In this document: positions 9,222-19,429 of the stretch, piece by piece
Layout of the letters: every line of letters starts with the position of its first letter
Position numbering within the stretch: the first letter of the stretch is position 1
NCBI GenBank assembly: GCA_046545575.1
Contig: JBKGZM010000004.1
Span: 2,521 to 66,520, forward strand
Direction of reading: 5' to 3'
DNA: 64,000 nt
Source: Dehalococcoidia bacterium
Lineage (GTDB): Bacteria > Chloroflexota > Dehalococcoidia > SZUA-161 > SpSt-899
Notes under the pieces: generated by a model
What the model saw: the letters and a program-made list of their open reading frames with translations, nothing else
What the model was told of the DNA's origin: nothing
The model's database searches: none
Position numbers and translations under genes: made by a program

Positions 9222-10511
9222 ATGATCGAGAGATACTCACGACCTGAGATGGTTCAGGTCTGGTCGGAAAAGAACAAATTCGATAAATGGCTTCAGGTGG
9301 AATTGGCCGTCTGCGAGGCATGGGCCGAAGTCGGTGTCATCCCCAAAGAGGAAATCCCGAAAATAAAGAAGGCCACCCTGAACATCGAGCGGATGAAGGA
9401 AATCCTCGAGGTTACCCATCACGATGTGACAGCATTCCTTAAGGCCGTCTCGGAAAGCCTCGGCGAAGAGGCACGCTTCATACACCTGGGACTCACTTCG
9501 TCCGACATCATGGACACCGCGTTAAGCATCCAGATGCGTGAGGCTACCGACATTCTGGAGCGCGACCTTGAAGGGCTTGCCTCTGCTATTCGACGAAAAG
9601 CATTAGAACATAAACATACAATGATGATGGGACGAACTCATGGTATTCATGCTGAGCCTACCACGTTCGGACTCAGGATGGCACTCTGGCATGAGGAGTT
9701 GAAGCGCCATCAGAAGAGGATTGCTGAAGCCAAAAGCGAGATTTCGGTAGGCAAGATATCAGGGGCAGTAGGCACACATGCTACAGTACCATTGGAGGTT
9801 GAGGACATCGCCTGCGGCAAGTTAGGTCTCGAAGCTGCCAGGGTCTCGAGTCAGATCATCCAGCGCGACCGCCATGCCGAGTTTATCACCACGCTGGGGC
9901 TGATCGCCAGCTCACTGGAGAAATTCGCCACCGAGATAAGGAGTCTGCAACGCACCGAGACCCTGGAGGTTGAAGAACCCTTCGAGGAAGGCCAAACGGG
10001 TTCATCGGCCATGCCCCATAAGCGCAACCCCGAGCTGTGTGAGCGCATCTGCGGGTTGGCCAGACTCATTCGGGGCCACTCTACAGCTTCCATGGAAAAC
10101 ATCTCTCTATGGCATGAGAGAGATATAAGTCACTCTTCCACTGAACGTATAATCCTGCCCGACTCCTGCCTGGCACTGGACTACATGCTGAGCATCTTCA
10201 CCTATGTCATGAAAGGACTCCAGGTCTATCCCGAGAATATGCGTCGCAATGTAGAGCTCACTGGCGGTTTGATCTTTTCCCAAAGGGTGCTCACCGCACT
10301 GATCGAGCAGAAAGGGTTCAGCAGGCATGAGGCCTACGAACTCGTACAGCGGAATGCCATGAAAGCCTGGCAAGGAGAAGGCAACTTCCTCGACTTACTG
10401 CTCGCCGATCCCGAGGTCACCCTCTCCGACGATGAGCTGCGCTCGATATTCGATTATAATTTTTTCCTTAAAAACATTAATGCGATCTTCGGGCGGGTGG
10501 GGCTGGAGTAA
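9222..10511 (+). CDS. purB: adenylosuccinate lyase
   Basis: MIERYSRPEM start, GRTHGIHAEP, GSSAMPHKRNP signature. Confidence 0.97.
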   Translation: MIERYSRPEMVQVWSEKNKFDKWLQVELAVCEAWAEVGVIPKEEIPKIKKATLNIERMKEILEVTHHDVTAFLKAVSESLGEEARFIHLGLTSSDIMDTALSIQMREATDILERDLEGLASAIRRKALEHKHTMMMGRTHGIHAEPTTFGLRMALWHEELKRHQKRIAEAKSEISVGKISGAVGTHATVPLEVEDIACGKLGLEAARVSSQIIQRDRHAEFITTLGLIASSLEKFATEIRSLQRTETLEVEEPFEEGQTGSSAMPHKRNPELCERICGLARLIRGHSTASMENISLWHERDISHSSTERIILPDSCLALDYMLSIFTYVMKGLQVYPENMRRNVELTGGLIFSQRVLTALIEQKGFSRHEAYELVQRNAMKAWQGEGNFLDLLLADPEVTLSDDELRSIFDYNFFLKNINAIFGRVGLE

Positions 10512-10542
10512 TCAGGCCATCACAATATCATCCCGGCCAAAG

Positions 10543-10584
10543 CCGGAATCCAGATGTAGGGACAGGTCTTTAGACCTGTCCGAA
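10543..10584 (+). repeat. 42-bp direct repeat copy 1 containing a GTAG-type REP palindrome
   Basis: ccggaatccagatgtagggacaggtctttagacctgtccgaa, identical to 13387-13428. Confidence 0.9.
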
Positions 10585-10596
10585 AAAGGCTGCAGC

Positions 10597-11810: not shown

Positions 11811-11832
11811 GTAGGGGAGACTTTAGTCTCCC
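11811..11832 (+). repeat. GTAG-type REP palindrome
   Basis: GTAG-gggagac-TTTA-gtctccc, same GTAG foot and TTTA loop as the copies at 10556 and 13400. Confidence 0.65.
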
Positions 11833-11932: not shown

Positions 11933-12544
11933 ATGCCCTCTACGTTCCCCTCTCTTTTTGACCCTCAAAAAGCCACTCAAGCCTTGAACTTCCTGGCCCG
12001 GAAGGCCGGCGGCCGGATTAATAGAATGAAGGCACTAAAGCTATTATATTTTGCTGATCGCTACCATCTGCGGAAGTATGGTCGCCTGATTACCAAGGAT
12101 GATTATTTTGCCATGTATCATGGGCCAGTTCCCTCTGGCACGAAGGATATCTCTGAATTTAGCAACGTCGTGAGCGAAAAGGATGAAAAATATGCCTCCC
12201 GATATATTGCCACCGTTGAGCGGTATGATATCAGATCAGTCGAATCCCCCGACCTGGAGGTCTTTTCCGATTCTGACATAGAGGCGCTGGACTTTACCTG
12301 GAATAACTTTGGGCACCTGGATCAATTTGCACTGGCAGATCTCACCCACAAATATCCTGAGTGGCAAAAGCACCAGCACTCCTTGCAGGATGAATCGACG
12401 AAGAGGGTCGACATGGTCATTGAGGATTTCCTTAATGATCCAGTTGATGATGTGAACCGATGTTACGATTTAGATGCCGAGGAAAGGGAAGCCCTGAGGG
12501 AGGAACTCAAAGAGACTGCCGAAATTGAGAGACTTTTGGGATAG
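11933..12544 (+). CDS. Panacea (SocA/DUF4065) domain antitoxin
   Basis: KALKLLYFADR, AMYHGPVPS (GPV motif), LADLTHKYPEW; RBS aaggagg; extended -10 TGgTAAAAT at 11892-11900. Confidence 0.85.
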   Translation: MPSTFPSLFDPQKATQALNFLARKAGGRINRMKALKLLYFADRYHLRKYGRLITKDDYFAMYHGPVPSGTKDISEFSNVVSEKDEKYASRYIATVERYDIRSVESPDLEVFSDSDIEALDFTWNNFGHLDQFALADLTHKYPEWQKHQHSLQDESTKRVDMVIEDFLNDPVDDVNRCYDLDAEEREALREELKETAEIERLLG

Positions 12545-12549
12545 GAATA

Positions 12550-12990
12550 GTGGATTTTCCCCCGGAGATTGCAGTTCGTGCTGTCCTCAAGCGAGGCGCT
12601 GTCTTTTATTTTGAAGAGGAGACGCTATCCTCCAGTGAACCACATTACTTTATAGTGATCAACACTGACCCCAAGACAGACGAAATTCTCCTGCTCGTGT
12701 GCTGTTCCTCAAGAACTAACAAGGTCAAACGCAGAAATTGCCCTGAGGAAACGCTGGTGGAAATCTCACCTGAAGAATATCCGGACTTCAGAACAGGGTC
12801 TATAGTGAATTGCAATAACGTCTGGGAGAAGAAAACCTCCGAGCTTGTAGGGAAATATTCTCAGGGGAAACTCAAGTTGAAAGACACAATGAGTGCAGAA
12901 CTTGTTGATAAACTGCAGGCAGCTGTGATAGCAAGTTCGGTGGTTGAGCGGAGGATACAAGCGATGCTTAATCCCCCCTCAAACCCTTAG
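12550..12990 (+). CDS. putative toxin, PemK/MazF-like fold
   Basis: 5 nt downstream of the Panacea gene; LKRGAVFYF...HYFIVIN...SIVNCNNV...MSAELVDKLQAAV follows the PemK/MazF pattern. Confidence 0.6.
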   Translation: MDFPPEIAVRAVLKRGAVFYFEEETLSSSEPHYFIVINTDPKTDEILLLVCCSSRTNKVKRRNCPEETLVEISPEEYPDFRTGSIVNCNNVWEKKTSELVGKYSQGKLKLKDTMSAELVDKLQAAVIASSVVERRIQAMLNPPSNP

Positions 12991-13074
12991 CAGATCCTCC
13001 ACCAACCTGCGTCTGGTCAAACGCTGATGGTATCTGGTCTTATTCGAGTTTGGCTTAACAGGCTGGCCAGCATA

Positions 13075-13176
13075 CATCGAAAGGCCGTGAAAGCCTGGAA
13101 CGGCGAAGGCAATTTCTCGGACTTGCTGCTGGCCGCCCGCGAGGTCACGCTTTCCGGCGGTGAATTGCATTCAATT
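13075..13176 (+). pseudogene. decayed copy of the purB 3' segment
   Basis: HRKAVKAWNGEGNFSDLLLAAREVTLSGGELHSI vs PurB QRNAMKAWQGEGNFLDLLLADPEVTLSDDELRSI (10347-10448), 24/34 aa identical. Confidence 0.88.
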
Positions 13177-13275
13177 GCCACTGGCACCCAAGAAACGGCA
13201 GTGCAATCTTCGAGCGGGTGGGACTGGAGTGAGCAGGCTACCACAATGTCATTCTGGACAGCGGTGAACTGTATG

Positions 13276-13309
13276 GGGTAGGGATGGCCGACGTCGGCCA
13301 TCCCTACCC
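13276..13309. repeat. perfect 34-bp palindrome (GTAG-type REP)
   Basis: gggtagggatggccgac|gtcggccatccctaccc. Confidence 0.85.
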
Positions 13310-13386
13310 GAACACTTTGCTATTTATACTTCAGTGCTTACTCCCTCACTCGTCATTCCGCCCCGCCTTTGGCGGATAAACTCCAA

Positions 13387-13428
13387 CCGGAATCCAGATG
13401 TAGGGACAGGTCTTTAGACCTGTCCGAA
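13387..13428 (+). repeat. 42-bp direct repeat copy 2
   Basis: Identical to 10543-10584. Confidence 0.9.
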
Positions 13429-13632
13429 GAAAGCGGTGTTTAATACCGGAATTTCTTTGCCCTGATAATCCTCAGGGACATCCTCCATGACTATTATTTT
13501 GTAGGCATCCCGCAAATTCTCCTCTAGTTCCTCCACTGTTTCGCCCTGGGTCATAATTTCGGGATACTCAATAAGTTTGCCCAGCCAGAAGGTGTCACCT
13601 CTCCAATATACCATCGTAAGGCTCTTATCCAT
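13414..13632 (-). CDS. HicB-family antitoxin (orphan; stop codon supplied by the REP)
   Basis: YPEIMTQGETVEELEENLRDAY HicB motif; RBS ggaggg; no HicA adjacent. Confidence 0.75.
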   Translation of the reverse strand: MDKSLTMVYWRGDTFWLGKLIEYPEIMTQGETVEELEENLRDAYKIIVMEDVPEDYQGKEIPVLNTAFFGQV

Positions 13633-13824
13633 GTTTCCCCTCCCTGAATACCGTAGCTAAGTGCATATCAATCTTCGTCACAGTATTCTATTATATATCG
13701 TTGTACTGAGTGCTTACAAAATACCCCACAAGGTTAACAGATGTCAATATCTCTCGGCGAATTTGCTGCGCCGATATTCGATTACAACTGCCCAAGTTAG
13801 ATTTCGGGACTTCCGATGATGGAT

Positions 13825-13853
13825 TTGACAAGCTGCCAAGATGGCGGTAGAAT
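13825..13853 (+). promoter_or_regulatory. sigma70 promoter of the DRT3 operon
   Basis: TTGACA (13825-13830), 17 nt, TAGAAT (13848-13853). Confidence 0.8.
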
Positions 13854-13905
13854 TTACAAAAATACAAACGTAATTCAATAACTCATGTTAGGCCTAGGAT
13901 CTGGG

Positions 13906-15237
13906 ATGTTAGATCAATCTTTTTCTGCTGCCAGTTTCAGGAGAATTCTGGATCAAGAGAATAGAAAGGGCGTTTATTTGGAAGGACGGTATTTCCCAAA
14001 TACTGTTGCGGTAACGGAGCAAATAAAGCAGTGTAACGCAGACATCAAAGAGAAGAAAAAGTCCAGCAGTGTCCCCCAAGATGAAATAGATACGCTGAAA
14101 GAAAAACTGGATAATCTGAAGCAAACCAAAGAAGATTTGCTTATGAAAGAACTCCAGAACTTAAGTGATAGGGTTGTAGACCGAAGTTTCGAAATTAAAC
14201 TAAAGAGAACAGATATTCCCAATAGCAAACCAATTTATACCCCTCAAGATACCCCCGAGCACTATTTTTCCATGAAACAGCTGCAACGCAATGTTGCTAA
14301 TTTATTCGGAGTAAAGCAGGCAAATAGGTCTTCCATTGTGGCTCAAGTTAAGGCACTACTTAATGACAGGTTCCCCAAATACGTTGTGAGAATGGACATT
14401 AAAGATTTCTACGAGAGTATTCCTCATCAATCTTTACTTGAGAGAATTAATGGCGACAACCTGCTGACTCCGTTTTCCAGAAAACTTTTACGACAAATCT
14501 TGAATGAGTATAAAGCAAAATCAGGGAGCGTTACAGGAATTCCTAGGGGGATTGGTGTTAGTGCATATTTGGCTGAGTTATATATGAGGGATGTCGACAA
14601 AGATATCAAAGCATTGCCTGGAGTTACGTATTATGCACGGTATGTCGACGATATAGTGATAATATTCACTCCGACGGCTACCCTCTATAATGTAGATTTA
14701 ATAGACGAACTAAAGTCGATTGTGGGGAAGAAGTATAAATTGGCACTAAATAGTGACAAAACACACGTCTTCGATCTGAGAAACGGGGACTCGTCTCACG
14801 AGTTTGACTATCTGGGATATAAGATTCATTTCGGGAATGGTGAGATCAAGACTAAACTCACAAAGAGAAAGACTGCTAAATACAAAAAACGCATTAGCTC
14901 TGCGTTTGATGAATATGTAAGACTTTCGAGATTCGATGAGAAAAAAGCTCGCAAGCTATTGGTAAAAAGGGTGAGATACTTGACCGGGAACACTAGTCTT
15001 TTAAATAACAAAAACAATATCCTCGTTGGTATTTATTACTCCAATAGTGAGCTGACCGACAATACAGACTTAATTGGAGTAGATAGATATTTAGATAATG
15101 AGATCAACAAAAAAGTTAGTCTTCAACAAGTAAAGCAGCGCTTAAGAAAATATAGTTTTAATGAAGGTTTTGAAACCAAAAAATTTTCCCCTTTCACAGC
15201 ACAAGATTTAAAGAGCATAGTAAAAGTATGGAAATAG
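13906..15237 (+). CDS. drt3a: antiviral reverse transcriptase Drt3a (UG3-type)
   Basis: RT motifs DIKDFYESI, GIPRGIGVSAYLAELYM, YARYVDDIVII; N-terminal MLDQSFS...ENRKG; AT-rich; directly upstream of a second RT. ORF open from 13885, ATG 13906 preferred. Confidence 0.88.
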   Translation: MLDQSFSAASFRRILDQENRKGVYLEGRYFPNTVAVTEQIKQCNADIKEKKKSSSVPQDEIDTLKEKLDNLKQTKEDLLMKELQNLSDRVVDRSFEIKLKRTDIPNSKPIYTPQDTPEHYFSMKQLQRNVANLFGVKQANRSSIVAQVKALLNDRFPKYVVRMDIKDFYESIPHQSLLERINGDNLLTPFSRKLLRQILNEYKAKSGSVTGIPRGIGVSAYLAELYMRDVDKDIKALPGVTYYARYVDDIVIIFTPTATLYNVDLIDELKSIVGKKYKLALNSDKTHVFDLRNGDSSHEFDYLGYKIHFGNGEIKTKLTKRKTAKYKKRISSAFDEYVRLSRFDEKKARKLLVKRVRYLTGNTSLLNNKNNILVGIYYSNSELTDNTDLIGVDRYLDNEINKKVSLQQVKQRLRKYSFNEGFETKKFSPFTAQDLKSIVKVWK

Positions 15238-15247
15238 GATTATCGAA

Positions 15248-17284
15248 GTGAAACGAAGAAAAACAACAATTACTAATAAAAAAGAGCGAGTGATTCTTTC
15301 TGATGTATTACCTTATGAAATCCCCGCCATCTTTTCGAATCGGCATCTCTATGATTTTCTTGTAGAGAACAAAATTAAAATAAACGGCGATGCAATCACA
15401 TGGGGGGAAAATACTCCTTTTCTTCCGGACATAGTGAAGCTAATCTTTGGACTTCAGGAAAGGGCCCCAGTTTCAGGCAGTCAAATCAAAATAGGGGCCA
15501 AAGATATGAAGGCTATACCTTTTACATACAAAGTATCTCACAAGGAAGATGATTTTAGAGAATTAACCATAATCCATCCTAAGAATCAACTCGCGATGAT
15601 AGAGTTCTATGAAAAATATGAGGCTTTGATCCTGTATTACTGTGATGTCAGTCCTTTCTCTATTAGGAAGCCACACAAAGTAGCAAAGTTCACATATCGC
15701 AAAGACAAGACGCATTTTGAGAATCTAGCTCATGACCACGAACATAAGGCGGTCGAAGAATTTGATAAGGAGTATGAAAACCTTAAGACATATTTCGTCT
15801 ACAAAAGTTTTAGTAACGTCTATAACTTCTATGAGTCCTATAAATACCACAGATGTGAAAAGAGATACAATCGACTCTTCAAGTTTGATATTTCAAAATG
15901 CTTCGACAGTATTTATACACATTCTGTTACTTGGTCGTTATTAAATAAAATCATCGTAAAAGATAACATCGAAGCCTCAAAAGGCACTTTTGGCGGCAAG
16001 TTCGACAATCTTATGCAGAATTTAAACTACGGAGAAACAAATGGGATAGTCATTGGCCCCGAGTTTTCGAGGATATTTGCTGAAATGATCCTTCAGCAAA
16101 TAGATTATTCAGTATTGTGCACTTTAGAAGAGAAGGGGATACTTCACAAGACAGATTACGAGATATTCCGCTATGTGGATGACTTCTTCGTTTTTTATAA
16201 TGAAGAAAAAACAAAAGAGGCTATTCTTGAAGCGTATCGATTACAACTAAAAGAGTACAAGATGTATATAAACGACTTGAAGTCTTTCTTGCTTGACAAA
16301 CCAATAATTACAGGGCTAACCAGAGCAAAACAGCAAATATCCGATCTCATCAATGATAAACTCTCGTTTAGGCCATTAAGTAAGAACAAAACCACGGATG
16401 AGGCGGAAGAAGAGCAATATTCCTTTTATGTTAGTTCTAATAAGCTAATTACTAAGTTCAAGGCAATCATCAAAGAGACAGAAGTGATCTATAAGGACAT
16501 TCTGAACTACACCTTGGCGTGTGTTGATCGAAAAGTTCTCAAACTCATTAACTCGTATAACAAACTCAGTGCTGAAGACAGAAAAGAGCAAGAACCCAAA
16601 ATCACAAAGGCAGTCATAGAAATACTTGATTTTACTTTCTTTCTGTACTCAGTCTCTCCAAGGGTCAATACTACTATCAAACTTTGTATGATTATAAGCA
16701 AGCTTACTAAGTTTTCAAGGATCAAGGGAAACTTCAATTACGACAATAAGCATCTGATACTCAAAAAGATATACGACGATATTTTCTTGGTCTTAAGAAA
16801 GAACAAAAGCTCTGAGCATATTCAGGTCGAGACACTCTACTTGCTTATAGCATTGAAGGACCTCGGAAGGGAGTATCGGCTCGATGAGGGTTCCCTAAGT
16901 AAATACTTCGATATAGATCTCGAAGAGAAAAGGTGCAAGAACCTTAACTACTTCTCAATTATCGTTCTGCTATTCTACATTGAGAACAAGACGAGGTATA
17001 CCAAAACTCGGAATATTTTAAAGTCCTATATAATGAGCAAGTTTAAAGAAGCCAGCGAATATAATAGGCACAAGGCCGGCGAACTGACACTTCTACTTTT
17101 TGATTTGTTGGCGTGTCCATTCATTGATGAGCTTTTTAAGAGATCTCTTTTGCTCCTTTATGGGATCAAGGATCCGTCAACACAAACTGGGATAATCCAG
17201 CATAGAAAATTCTGGTTCACGAAGTGGACAGATTTCGATTTTGGCAAAGAACTTGACGCCAAGAAGAGCCAGGAAGTATACTAA
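15248..17284 (+). CDS. drt3b: antiviral reverse transcriptase Drt3b (UG8-type)
   Basis: N-terminal SDVLPYEIP; RT motifs FDISKCFDSIYTH, GIVIGPEFSRIFAE, FRYVDDFFVF; long helical C-terminus; GTG start 10 nt after drt3a. Confidence 0.88.
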   Translation: MKRRKTTITNKKERVILSDVLPYEIPAIFSNRHLYDFLVENKIKINGDAITWGENTPFLPDIVKLIFGLQERAPVSGSQIKIGAKDMKAIPFTYKVSHKEDDFRELTIIHPKNQLAMIEFYEKYEALILYYCDVSPFSIRKPHKVAKFTYRKDKTHFENLAHDHEHKAVEEFDKEYENLKTYFVYKSFSNVYNFYESYKYHRCEKRYNRLFKFDISKCFDSIYTHSVTWSLLNKIIVKDNIEASKGTFGGKFDNLMQNLNYGETNGIVIGPEFSRIFAEMILQQIDYSVLCTLEEKGILHKTDYEIFRYVDDFFVFYNEEKTKEAILEAYRLQLKEYKMYINDLKSFLLDKPIITGLTRAKQQISDLINDKLSFRPLSKNKTTDEAEEEQYSFYVSSNKLITKFKAIIKETEVIYKDILNYTLACVDRKVLKLINSYNKLSAEDRKEQEPKITKAVIEILDFTFFLYSVSPRVNTTIKLCMIISKLTKFSRIKGNFNYDNKHLILKKIYDDIFLVLRKNKSSEHIQVETLYLLIALKDLGREYRLDEGSLSKYFDIDLEEKRCKNLNYFSIIVLLFYIENKTRYTKTRNILKSYIMSKFKEASEYNRHKAGELTLLLFDLLACPFIDELFKRSLLLLYGIKDPSTQTGIIQHRKFWFTKWTDFDFGKELDAKKSQEVY

Positions 17285-17289
17285 CACCA

Positions 17290-17405
17290 GAATGCTCCGT
17301 CCAAATTAATAGCCATAGCAATATGGCTCACACACAAGCATTCGCTTTGGTTTCAGATACAATGAGATCAAGGCAATTAAAGCGGCAGGGACGGGCCGCT
17401 TTTTT
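17290..17405 (+). ncRNA. DRT3-associated structured ncRNA with ACACAC tract
   Basis: Stems gaatgct/agcattc; agccata-GCAA-tatggct; 12-bp stem with 3 G-U pairs (17344-17374); terminator-like aagcggc/gccgctt plus T-run; unpaired CACACACA at 17329-17336. Confidence 0.8.
17379..17405 (+). terminator. intrinsic terminator / 3' stem of the ncRNA
   Basis: aaagcggc-agggacgg-gccgcttt followed by a T-run. Confidence 0.7.
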
Positions 17406-17539
17406 ATTAACTTACCCCCGAATAATTTTCCCAGTGACTGACCTTCACCCAAAATCCCCAAAAATATTGTATTGTATCCTAAAGTGTGCTAACATATCCT
17501 CGCTGAAATTTCGCGCGAAAGGGGGTGATGTCCTAACTT

Positions 17540-17731
17540 ATGGACCCTGATTATTTGCTATCAACAGAAGAAGTAGGCGAAATCCTGAAGGTCAGTAAAG
17601 TGACCATCCAGCGGTGGTGCCACGAAGGCAAGATACCGGCGGCGAAGATCGGAAAATCATATCGTATAAACAAGGACGACCTTGACAGATGGTTCAAGGG
17701 AAAGCTCCTGGAGAATGCGGGCTTTAGTTAG
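17540..17731 (+). CDS. excisionase-like helix-turn-helix (HTH_17) protein
   Basis: LLSTEEVGEILKVSKVTIQRWCHEGKIPAAKIGKSYRI; RBS gggggtga. Confidence 0.85.
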   Translation: MDPDYLLSTEEVGEILKVSKVTIQRWCHEGKIPAAKIGKSYRINKDDLDRWFKGKLLENAGFS

Positions 17732-17747: not shown

Positions 17748-18116
17748 GTGGGACCAATGCACCTGATTATCGAAGGATATGGAGGTGATATCCAGAAAAT
17801 AAGGGACACAAACTTAATCTACGAATTTCTCGACAATTGTCCCGACGAAATTAACATGACAAAGGTTTCTACTCCCCAGGTCTCCACTTATGAAGGCTCC
17901 TCACCCGACGAGACCGGGGTCTCCGGATTTGTTCTCCTCGCTGAAAGCCACGTCAGTATTCACATTCTACCCGGTCAATCTTCCCTGAACATCGACCTGT
18001 TCTCCTGCAAGGAATTCAAACCTGAAGACGCTATCAAACTCCTGAAGGAAAGGTTTGGATTAAGCGAGATCAGAAGCTATCTCCTCAACCGTCCTGAATC
18101 AGGAATAGAGGTATAG
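17748..18116 (+). CDS. speD: S-adenosylmethionine decarboxylase proenzyme (pyruvoyl-dependent, SpeD family)
   Basis: HLIIEGYG, GVSGFVLLAESHVSIH self-cleavage motif, IDLFSC. Confidence 0.85.
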   Translation: MGPMHLIIEGYGGDIQKIRDTNLIYEFLDNCPDEINMTKVSTPQVSTYEGSSPDETGVSGFVLLAESHVSIHILPGQSSLNIDLFSCKEFKPEDAIKLLKERFGLSEIRSYLLNRPESGIEV

Positions 18117-18277
18117 AATCATTAGTTGTACGTGCTCTAGTAAGCGCACCAGTACACCAGTACACCAGCATTGTGGTGGTATGAGGCATGTGCTCTCATC
18201 CATCGCAGGCTGATGTCATTTAGAGTAATATCCGCCTGCGGCGGATGCCTCAGGAACGAAAAAGAGGTTGGGGATTT

Positions 18278-19429
18278 ATGAAGAACACCATAGTATCAAC
18301 CCTCAGTGAAAATATTGTTGAGCGTGTAGAGCATTTTTCTGCATCCAGAAAGACGCCGCACCTTGTGATGGATACGCATACGATCCGGGATAAATTCAAA
18401 CAGTGCCAGTCCGCCTTAGGCGGACTTGACAGCCACAAGCAGACACGCTTGTTCTACGCGGTCAAAACGAATTCCCACAAGCGCATCGTGGATATCATGG
18501 ACGAGCTGGGGGCTGATTTTGAGGTGTCCTCGGAAGGCGAATTGCGGCCGTTGCTCAAGCGCGGTATATCGCCGCAAAGGATTATATCCAGCAATCCTAT
18601 CAAGAGTATTCCGTTTATTCAAGAGGCTTACGAGGCAGGCGTGGAATACTTTGCCTTCGACTCCGACGACGAAATCGACAAGCTGGAAAAGTTCGCCCCC
18701 GGCAGCAATGTCTACGTCCGGCTGGTCGTCTCCAACAAGGGCAGCCAGTGGCCTCTGGAGAGGAAGTTCGGTGTGGAAACGGAGGAGGCTGTCAGACTGC
18801 TCGTGAAGGCTTCTGAACGCGACCTCAATCCCTGCGGTATAGCGTTTCATGTCGGCTCGCAGTGTATCGATGAGAGTTCGTGGGTTGAGGCGATACGGAA
18901 AAGCAGACAAGTGTGGGACATGGCAAGGGAAGAAGGGGTGGAACTGACCATGCTGAACCTGGGAGGTGGATTCCCCATTGAATATAGGACCGACTCCATC
19001 CCCACATGCAGTCGCATTGGAGAGGAGATAAACAGGACACTAAACGAGGAGTTCCCTGAAGGCGTCGAGGTCTTCGTCGAACCCGGCCGGGCCTTCGTCG
19101 GCGAAGCGGGTGTTCTCGTGGCCACCGTTATCGCCAAGGCCAAACGCGACGGACAGGACTGGGTTTACCTGGATATCGGCGTTTTCAATGGCCTGATGGA
19201 AAGCGTTGGCGGTATCGATTACCCGGTCATGCTCAACAGGGATGCTCCGCTGGGTAAATACGTGCTGGCAGGACCCGCCTGTGACAGCTTCGATGTTATC
19301 TCAAACGAGGTCGTTATGCCCGAGCCTGAAATCGGCGATAGGGTATACATTCCATCCGCAGGGGCCTATACCACCGCATACGCATCTCGCTTCAACGGTT
19401 TCCCTGTCCCAAAGACCTACTTTATCTGA
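18278..19429 (+). CDS. type III PLP-dependent ornithine/lysine decarboxylase
   Basis: FYAVKTN (PLP Lys), KFG, FHVGSQ, NLGGGFP, EPGR, GPACDSFD, GAYT; start at ATG 18278. Confidence 0.9.
   Translation: MKNTIVSTLSENIVERVEHFSASRKTPHLVMDTHTIRDKFKQCQSALGGLDSHKQTRLFYAVKTNSHKRIVDIMDELGADFEVSSEGELRPLLKRGISPQRIISSNPIKSIPFIQEAYEAGVEYFAFDSDDEIDKLEKFAPGSNVYVRLVVSNKGSQWPLERKFGVETEEAVRLLVKASERDLNPCGIAFHVGSQCIDESSWVEAIRKSRQVWDMAREEGVELTMLNLGGGFPIEYRTDSIPTCSRIGEEINRTLNEEFPEGVEVFVEPGRAFVGEAGVLVATVIAKAKRDGQDWVYLDIGVFNGLMESVGGIDYPVMLNRDAPLGKYVLAGPACDSFDVISNEVVMPEPEIGDRVYIPSAGAYTTAYASRFNGFPVPKTYFI

Follow-up and report, generated by a model that had tools for sequence, protein, structure and literature searches.

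A DRT3 cassette of two reverse transcriptases and a template RNA in a Dehalococcoidia genome

Does an AT-rich block in a Dehalococcoidia genome encode a complete DRT3 anti-phage system, and would such a copy act as its Escherichia coli counterpart does? The block lies at positions 13825-17406 of the 64,000-nucleotide (nt) stretch of DNA analyzed here (the window). A sequence-only reading had taken it for a DRT3 locus, with two adjacent, very different reverse transcriptase (RT) genes of the UG3 and UG8 types, an intact YVDD in each, a structured noncoding RNA (ncRNA) right after the second stop codon and no effector gene. PADLOC, the NCBIfam equivalogs and matches to PDB entries 9z6y and 26cz bear out that assignment, and we regard the segment, with high confidence, as an intact, self-contained DRT3 anti-phage operon. 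That the cassette is also a working DRT3, making GT/AC-repeat double-stranded DNA (dsDNA) and causing abortive infection, is the best reading because every defining sequence feature is present; this step is held with somewhat less assurance. The DRT3 system and its mechanism are already published, and the locus is a further copy. Its annotation is now settled as that of a complete cassette in which each functional residue and RNA element is placed. Added here are the invariance of the template and gating residues over 48-50 diverse loci and a covariation-supported RNA model (helices P1, P2 and P3 and a pseudoknot) that yields testable compensatory mutations.

According to the available text of the Wang et al. 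2026 preprint (PMC13174585), E. coli DRT3a, acting with the ncRNA, uses a conserved 5′-ACACAC-3′ loop as its template for poly(dTdG); DRT3b needs no RNA to make poly(dCdA), for which it primes on Y666 near its C terminus, and the two strands anneal into dsDNA. In the same text, E22 gates dATP in DRT3b, the dCTP switch is R241, and R71 has a contributing role. The sequence-only reading had given this scheme as poly(GT) synthesis by Drt3a from an ACAC template and template-free poly(AC) synthesis by Drt3b, in agreement with that paper. E. coli DRT3 is also covered by Gao et al. 2020 and Deng et al. 2026 (Science), as cited in the available portion of the review PMC13314766.

Two reverse transcriptases and their conserved residues

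PADLOC assigned the first protein to Drt3a (PDLC03768, E 7.2e-120, 399 bits; runner-up RT_UG17, 118 bits) and the second to Drt3b (PDLC03784, E 1.6e-207, 689 bits, residues 1-678; runner-up Drt6, 143 bits). The NCBIfam equivalogs gave the same answer, with 398 bits for NF041747 (Drt3a) against a cutoff of 200 and 769.8 bits for NF041748 (Drt3b) against a cutoff of 350; the NCBIfam Drt2 and Drt4 models fell far under their cutoffs for both proteins, and Pfam recognized the generic RVT_1 domain alone in each. Among PDB chains, Drt3a matched 9z6y_A, ‘Drt3a’ (E 4.5e-24). Drt3b matched (phmmer) 9z6y_H, ‘Drt3b reverse transcriptase protein’, at E 6.2e-68 and 26cz_A at E 2.1e-86, the latter along the RT as well as residues 396-638, the repeat region. 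The cassette and its protein-coding features are as follows.

13825-17406, + strand: DRT3 cassette, made up of promoter, drt3a, drt3b and ncRNA with terminator
13825-13853, + strand: putative sigma-70-like promoter TTGACA-17-TAGAAT, 11/12 match
13906-15237, + strand: drt3a (UG3, class 2 RT), 443 amino acids (aa) from the ATG at 13906; the longest open reading frame (ORF) is 13885-15237, 450 aa
14641-14652, + strand: catalytic YVDD of Drt3a, aa 253-256 of the 450-aa ORF, aligned with the YVDD of 9z6y_A
15248-17284, + strand: drt3b (UG8, class 1 RT with an alpha-repeat domain), 678 aa, GTG start
15317-15319, + strand: Drt3b E24 codon, equivalent to E. coli DRT3b E22 (dATP gate) by alignment to 26cz_A
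15557-15559, + strand: Drt3b R104 codon, equivalent to E. coli R71
16070-16072, + strand: Drt3b R275 codon, equivalent to E. coli R241 (dCTP gate and alternation switch)
16172-16183, + strand: catalytic YVDD of Drt3b, aa 309-312, equivalent to E. coli Y276-D279
17279-17281, + strand: Drt3b Y678 codon, the final residue, in the C-terminal SQEVY; expected equivalent of the E. coli priming residue Y666

Drt3a probably starts at the ATG at 13906 (M8 of the 450-aa form) and not at 13885, because the NCBIfam profile begins at residue 8 of the 450-aa form, the alignments of homologs at other loci start with the first residue of the 443-aa form, an AGGA sits 6 nt upstream of that ATG and the 450-aa form is absent from the protein collection, while Drt3b is present. 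The GTG of drt3b begins after a 10-nt gap from the drt3a stop, and a GGA-containing stretch overlaps that stop.

The cassette was compared with 55 related loci (9 from genomes and 46 from metagenomes), in 50 of which the Drt3b stop is on the contig. In 44 of these 50, a Drt3a homolog precedes Drt3b on the same strand; in the remaining six, the contig extends no more than 348 nt upstream. The neighbors of the cassette in the window (a 72-aa ORF, a Panacea gene and a 146-aa ORF, described below) were found beside none of the other DRT3 loci compared (L001-L009 and L013-L058); matches to them occur only in the host loci of relatives (L059-L061). Drt3a, Drt3b and the RNA thus form the whole module, the only conserved unit in the related loci, as the claim that no effector is encoded had implied. 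The nearest sequenced relatives are L001 (Candidatus Termititenax persephonae) and the metagenome contigs L013-L023, with 60-67% identity to the window in Drt3b and 51-58% in Drt3a. The sources of the nearest Drt3b homologs are unrelated and include Candidatus Termititenax, Chitinophaga and Flavobacteriaceae.

Residue equivalences in Drt3b were read from the alignment to 26cz_A, a SUMO fusion whose numbering is offset by 108, so that chain positions 130, 349 and 384-387 are E22, R241 and Y276-D279, respectively. The same alignment pairs D214 with E. coli D182 and F219 with F187. Conservation was scored over the Drt3b ORFs with 600 aa or more, 48 in all: that of the window and those of 47 loci, which are 27-67% identical to the window protein. 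E24, R104, D214, F219, R275 and the YVDD at 309-312 are identical in 48/48 sequences. E24 had been singled out from the sequence as a candidate specificity residue, a choice upheld both by its invariance and by its experimental counterpart, E22, in PMC13174585. A C-terminal Tyr is kept in 47/48 sequences as the last or penultimate residue. The phmmer alignment ends short of this tail, and Y678 was equated with Y666 through the conserved C-terminal SQEVY motif; because the motif and its Tyr are conserved, Y678 is the expected priming residue.

The template RNA and its pseudoknot

The structured RNA proposed directly after the second stop is borne out by its folding energy: the segment 17285-17405 folds at -41.9 kcal/mol against -24.0 +/- 3.1 kcal/mol for shuffled sequences (z = -5.8; 0/200 as stable). 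Its elements were placed from the fold, a covariance model and covariation.

17285-17406, + strand: DRT3 ncRNA, 122 nt, with its 3′ end at the terminator
17290-17296 with 17337-17343, + strand: P1 closing helix, which encloses the pseudoknot strand, P1a and the template
17311-17317 with 17322-17328, + strand: P1a hairpin with a GCAA loop
17329-17336, + strand: template CACACACA, with ACACAC at 17330-17335; unpaired, with P1a directly on its 5′ side and the 3′ strand of P1 directly on its 3′ side
17344-17355 with 17363-17374, + strand: P2 hairpin, 12 bp
17379-17386 with 17395-17402, + strand: P3 hairpin, 8 bp, with loop AGGGACGG, followed by a U run to 17405; intrinsic terminator and 3′ domain of the RNA
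17297-17302 with 17389-17394, + strand: predicted pseudoknot, CCGUCC with GGACGG in the P3 loop, from covariation

In the template, ACACACA is invariant in 23/23 aligned RNAs, and ACACAC lies 26-69 nt past the Drt3b stop in 47/50 related loci. The three loci outside this interval are L028, with only 15 nt of sequence past the stop, L029, which has an aberrant C terminus and no such motif in 111 nt, and L006, with the motif at +109. The review PMC13314766, in its available portion, asks whether DRT3 subtypes write other repeats; none was seen in this 50-locus sample of very different bacteria.

Covariation was scored on an alignment of 15 of the 45 distinct downstream sequences, comprising the window and its 14 nearest, picked for good alignment by MAFFT. 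Imposed on these 15 rows, the window fold leaves 92.8% of cells paired and shows compensatory change in 24/34 pairs; 0/500 shuffles reach any of the measures, and slid registers are 40-50% paired. Helix by helix, compensatory change was found in 5/7 pairs of P1, 10/12 pairs of P2 (95% of cells paired) and 5/8 pairs of P3 (100% of cells paired), and a P1-type helix can be drawn in 43/45 distinct loci. P1a is confined to some of the lineages; in the rows that contain it, 68% of cells are paired. The four helices around the template are thus supported by covariation.

A covariance model (R1) built from the 15-row alignment has a single match in the window, at 17286-17406 (101.8 bits). Among RNAs outside the training set, R1 scored 108.5 bits for L023, 42.7 for L025, 30.0 for L033, 24.4 for L037 and 23.0 for L051. 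Distant clades are reached only weakly, with 17.7-19.5 bits for flavobacterial RNAs. One locus, L041 (38% identity), had no megablast match in E. coli genomes. The published DRT3 RNA covariance model, as described in the available text of PMC13174585, has EcoDRT3 and close systems as its seed and yielded 32 unique RNAs.

The strand CCGUCC lies directly 3′ of the 5′ strand of P1, and its pairing with the P3 loop was assessed on a second, model-fitted alignment (A5) of 20 matches drawn from 24 sources at a cutoff of E 0.01, in which the template is misaligned in rows L037 and L051. Because the pseudoknot is outside the covariance model, A5 was not fitted to it. On A5, the six pseudoknot pairs are 92.2% paired and 5/6 show compensatory change; the covariation score was matched by 0/500 shuffles, and slid registers are 36-62% paired. 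In an anchored scan of the 45 distinct sequences, the 12 nt that follow P1 had their best partner 41-54 nt beyond the template in 39 of the 43 with a P1-type helix, compared to 4-13/43 for shuffled strands (10 trials) and 19/43 for reversed strands. Within the 41-54-nt interval, 26 distinct paired sequences were found, which differ by clade; examples are CUGAC/GUCAG, CAGUCC/GGACUG, CCACCUA/UGGGUGG and CAAACUUCAA/UUGAAGUUUG. Shuffle tests of single loci are weak, with 7/43 loci below 5%, so the support for the pairing comes from position and covariation across loci. On that footing, a long-range pseudoknot is supported by covariation. The helix-bounded template and the pseudoknot together may resemble the core of telomerase RNA.

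The literature searched did not yield a DRT3 pseudoknot: by title and abstract, the matches listed for ‘DRT3’ with ‘pseudoknot’ concern DRT2 and DRT10, and the word is absent from the available text of PMC13174585, although the cryo-EM paper or supplementary figures may show it.

Acquisition, host setting and predicted action

The cassette has a G+C content of 37.6%, compared to 51.2% for the genome and 50.5% for the window. Drt3b has a match in 0 of the 60 relatives searched (24 high-quality genomes), and a break in synteny lies at 17466. Together, these observations support horizontal acquisition of a cassette foreign to the lineage, and with it the earlier description of an AT-rich, intact, acquired copy. 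The same-genus genome G001 (64% complete) matches the window from 17466 rightward at 88-91% identity and, immediately left of the break, holds the end of a transposase-like gene. The cassette thus ends between 17407 and 17465, just past its terminator.

17411-17465, no strand: host-side flank right of the cassette; synteny with G001 resumes at 17466

On the left, where no boundary was found, G+C falls near 13.4-13.6 kb, and family relatives share only genes to the right. Four DNA runs from one study contain the cassette contiguous with host genes, one contig spanning 13399-22000; two of these runs may be the source of the assembly and so are not independent. Runs in which the stretch occurs carry the labels of microbial mat and hypersaline lake metagenomes. 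At position 15079, contigs of 3/4 runs have T where the window has G, a conservative V399L change in Drt3a; the contig of the fourth run breaks there.

If the cassette acts as its E. coli counterpart does, Drt3a would bind the ncRNA and repeatedly copy the single-stranded CACACACA (17329-17336), positioned between hairpin P1a and closing helix P1, into poly(dTdG). Drt3b would prime on Y678 and, template-free, add dC and dA in alternation, with E24 admitting dATP and excluding dTTP and dGTP, and R275 reading the preceding base and admitting dCTP. The two strands would then anneal into GT/AC-repeat dsDNA, the build-up of which may arrest the infected cell (abortive infection), with no separate effector encoded.

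Several points weigh against this account as far as expression and activity are concerned. For 13800-17470, no RNA run was listed, which speaks neither for nor against expression. The DNA products, priming, phage defense and trigger are carried over by homology from E. coli proteins to which those of the window have low identity. The alignment of Drt3a to 9z6y_A (E 4.5e-24) is gap-rich, and Drt3b, in the 27-67% range toward its relatives, is likewise distant from the studied proteins, so quantitative behavior may differ. The promoter named in the sequence-only reading is present as described, and TTGACA-17-TAGAAT is the top-scoring + strand site (11/12), yet a site of at least 10/12 lies upstream of Drt3a in only 3/36 related loci. 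A match of at least 11/12 arises in 28/5000 mononucleotide shuffles of the 273-nt intergenic stretch, and the whole 4.5-kb region holds 13 promoter-like sites against 11.3 expected from shuffles, which is no excess. As a promoter, the site is therefore plausible and has no comparative support.

The host supplies the last of these points. According to the available text of PMC13174585, E. coli DRT3 kills cells that lack RecBCD, and lambda Gam is its trigger. RecB, RecC, AddA and AddB were not found in the 94%-complete host assembly, which is incomplete and leaves their absence unproven. In the assembly, nothing matches the recC and addB models, and the recB and addA models pick up a UvrD/PcrA-like frame of 722 aa and no other; PD-(D/E)XK was matched once, in a stand-alone frame of 321 aa. 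A UvrD-like helicase of ~1000-1100 aa is present in several relatives (G001:C199, in the same-genus genome, and G007:C145 among them), in G007 with a 926-aa gene directly upstream; neither this long helicase nor the 926-aa gene has a tblastn match in the host genome. The restraint and trigger step of E. coli DRT3 may thus not transfer to this host. Should the apparent lack of RecBCD/AddAB be confirmed on a closed genome, the host would offer a natural test of how general the RecBCD guard is.

These circumstances lend something to the view that the copy is DRT3 by descent but silent or decaying in this host, its defense lost: an active copy could be costly where no RecBCD/AddAB was found, and the low G+C suggests recent arrival. 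We consider this improbable. Both ORFs are intact, the catalytic, gating and priming residues are all kept, the RNA retains its template and every helix, and the contigs of the four runs carry the cassette with the conservative V399L as the lone listed internal difference. Less probable again is that the segment after drt3b is a mere 3′ untranslated region and terminator with no functional template RNA. P3 and its U run do form a standard intrinsic terminator, and scans with Rfam 15 returned no family matching the DRT3 ncRNA; against this stand the constancy of ACACACA (23/23 aligned RNAs) and ACACAC (47/50 loci), the covariation of the pseudoknot and of P1 and P2, which a terminator does not need, and the published E. 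coli ncRNA, which in the available text of PMC13174585 has the same place and the same motif.

Besides the reading of the locus as a working DRT3, two linked readings can be put forward tentatively, as a pair that we think unlikely to hold jointly. By the first, DRT3 RNAs would have a universal, telomerase-RNA-like core, in which a P1-closed template, often bounded on its 5′ side by a hairpin, is accompanied by a pseudoknot that joins the terminator-hairpin loop with the strand just 3′ of P1, and this arrangement would span Drt3b lineages of 27-67% identity. By the second, the GT/AC duplex in this host would be guarded by a factor other than RecBCD, which would restrain it and free it on infection.

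Left of the cassette, a SocA/Panacea-domain gene (11933-12544, + strand; Pfam E 2e-24) is followed 5 nt downstream by a 146-aa ORF (12550-12990, + strand) with no family match. The two are a candidate Panacea-type toxin-antitoxin pair, not conserved beside other DRT3 loci. The 72-aa ORF (13414-13632, - strand), between a repeat element and the DRT3 promoter, had no match in Pfam, NCBIfam or PADLOC, and its sole similarity is weak (30% identity, E 0.001), to one family relative. A noncoding repeat of ~250 nt is present in two copies (10345-10590 and 13073-13434; 76-96% identity). Short, GC-rich, REP-like hairpins (10559-10581, 13403-13425 and 11811-11829) are scattered over many contigs of the genome, where they interrupt assembly unitigs and produce false contig joints. 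A palindrome at 13276-13309 weakly matches the Chloroflexi-1 RNA family of Rfam (21.8 bits against a cutoff of 80), which has further sub-threshold matches in the genome (32 and 29 bits against the same cutoff).

Immediately right of the cassette, 17411-17429 is an exact 19-nt repeat of C2:9788-9806 in the same genome, where it is the ribosome-binding region of a 187-aa gene that starts directly downstream. In the window it comes straight after the DRT3 terminator and no such gene is present, as though a divergent gene had been displaced or replaced by the cassette; no remnant of a displaced gene was found beside the cassette. A circular or excised form, to which contig joins 17429->11806 and 10553->11807 in the four runs might point, was rejected: the 17429->11806 join is explained by C2:9747-9806, which contains the 19-nt copy and a dispersed hairpin repeat 11 nt apart, and the sides of the apparent join are only 26 nt long. 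Further right, an HTH_17 gene (17540-17731), an AdoMet decarboxylase gene (17748-18116) and a PLP-dependent decarboxylase gene (18245-19429), all on the + strand, are common to family relatives and are therefore host genes; they look like a host polyamine-type operon outside the island. The HTH_17 gene has a weak match to the MAD1 defense model. Elsewhere in the genome, contig C7 carries a second defense-type RT (L011:739-2343, - strand; 534 aa), with RT_UG21 as its best PADLOC match (E 4.5e-77), and the adjoining 357-aa ORF has no PADLOC match.

Comparison with known systems

That the two RTs belong to a retron, a group II intron, an AbiK/Abi-P2 or a DRT10/UG17 system and were misread as DRT3 is scarcely credible: they do give the weaker matches usual among RTs (group II maturase, 84 bits; retron St85, 48 bits; and, in PADLOC, RT_UG17, 118 bits, AbiK, 82 bits, and AbiP2, 103 bits), but the curated cutoffs lie far above (84 against 300; 48 against 235), the scores are 3-5 times below those of the Drt3a and Drt3b models, and Rfam revealed no msr/msd-like or intron RNA. 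Individually, a retron identity was rejected at 47.6 bits for the retron St85 RT against a cutoff of 235, with no retron RNA in the Rfam scans, and a group II intron identity at 84 and 41 bits for TIGR04416 against a cutoff of 300, with no intron RNA in the same scans. DRT10 (UG17) was rejected because Drt3a scores 118 bits on RT_UG17 against 399 on Drt3a and its partner is a UG8 RT, not a SLATT protein.

Drt3b shares with AbiK, DRT4 (UG15) and DRT6, the class 1 UG/Abi enzymes, the combination of an RT with an alpha-repeat domain, and it matches their models and structures; those models score it at no more than 143 bits, compared to 689 for the Drt3b model. The available text of PMC13174585 draws the likeness to AbiK/DRT4/DRT6-type enzymes in template-independent, protein-primed synthesis and in hexamers. 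The DRT4 product is random-sequence single-stranded DNA according to Table 1 in the available portion of the review PMC13314766, not a strict dinucleotide repeat. Drt3a in turn parallels DRT10 (UG17) and telomerase, in which, as in DRT3a, an RT repeatedly copies a short RNA template into tandem-repeat DNA, a comparison also made for DRT3a by Wang et al. (PMC13174585, available text). Where DRT10 employs protein priming and a SLATT effector, DRT3 has a second RT.

The closest relatives (L013-L023 and L001) share the ncRNA family of the window (R1 90-110 bits). Most lack the P1a hairpin that the window has 5′ of the template, and none has the flanking genes of the window.

Measured against E. 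coli DRT3 (PDB 26cz, 9z6y and 9z6z), the window copy is distant in sequence (Drt3b E 2e-86 to 26cz and 6e-68 to 9z6y; Drt3a E 4.5e-24). Its host is an uncultured bacterium. The priming Tyr is penultimate in E. coli DRT3b and the very last residue here, and the E. coli system is guarded by RecBCD, whereas no RecBCD/AddAB was found in the host assembly of the window. The two systems agree in the order drt3a-drt3b-ncRNA, in a YVDD in both RTs, in the presence in the window Drt3b of equivalents of E22, R71, R241 and Y666, in having no other effector gene and in the same ACACAC template in a loop beside a stem-loop.

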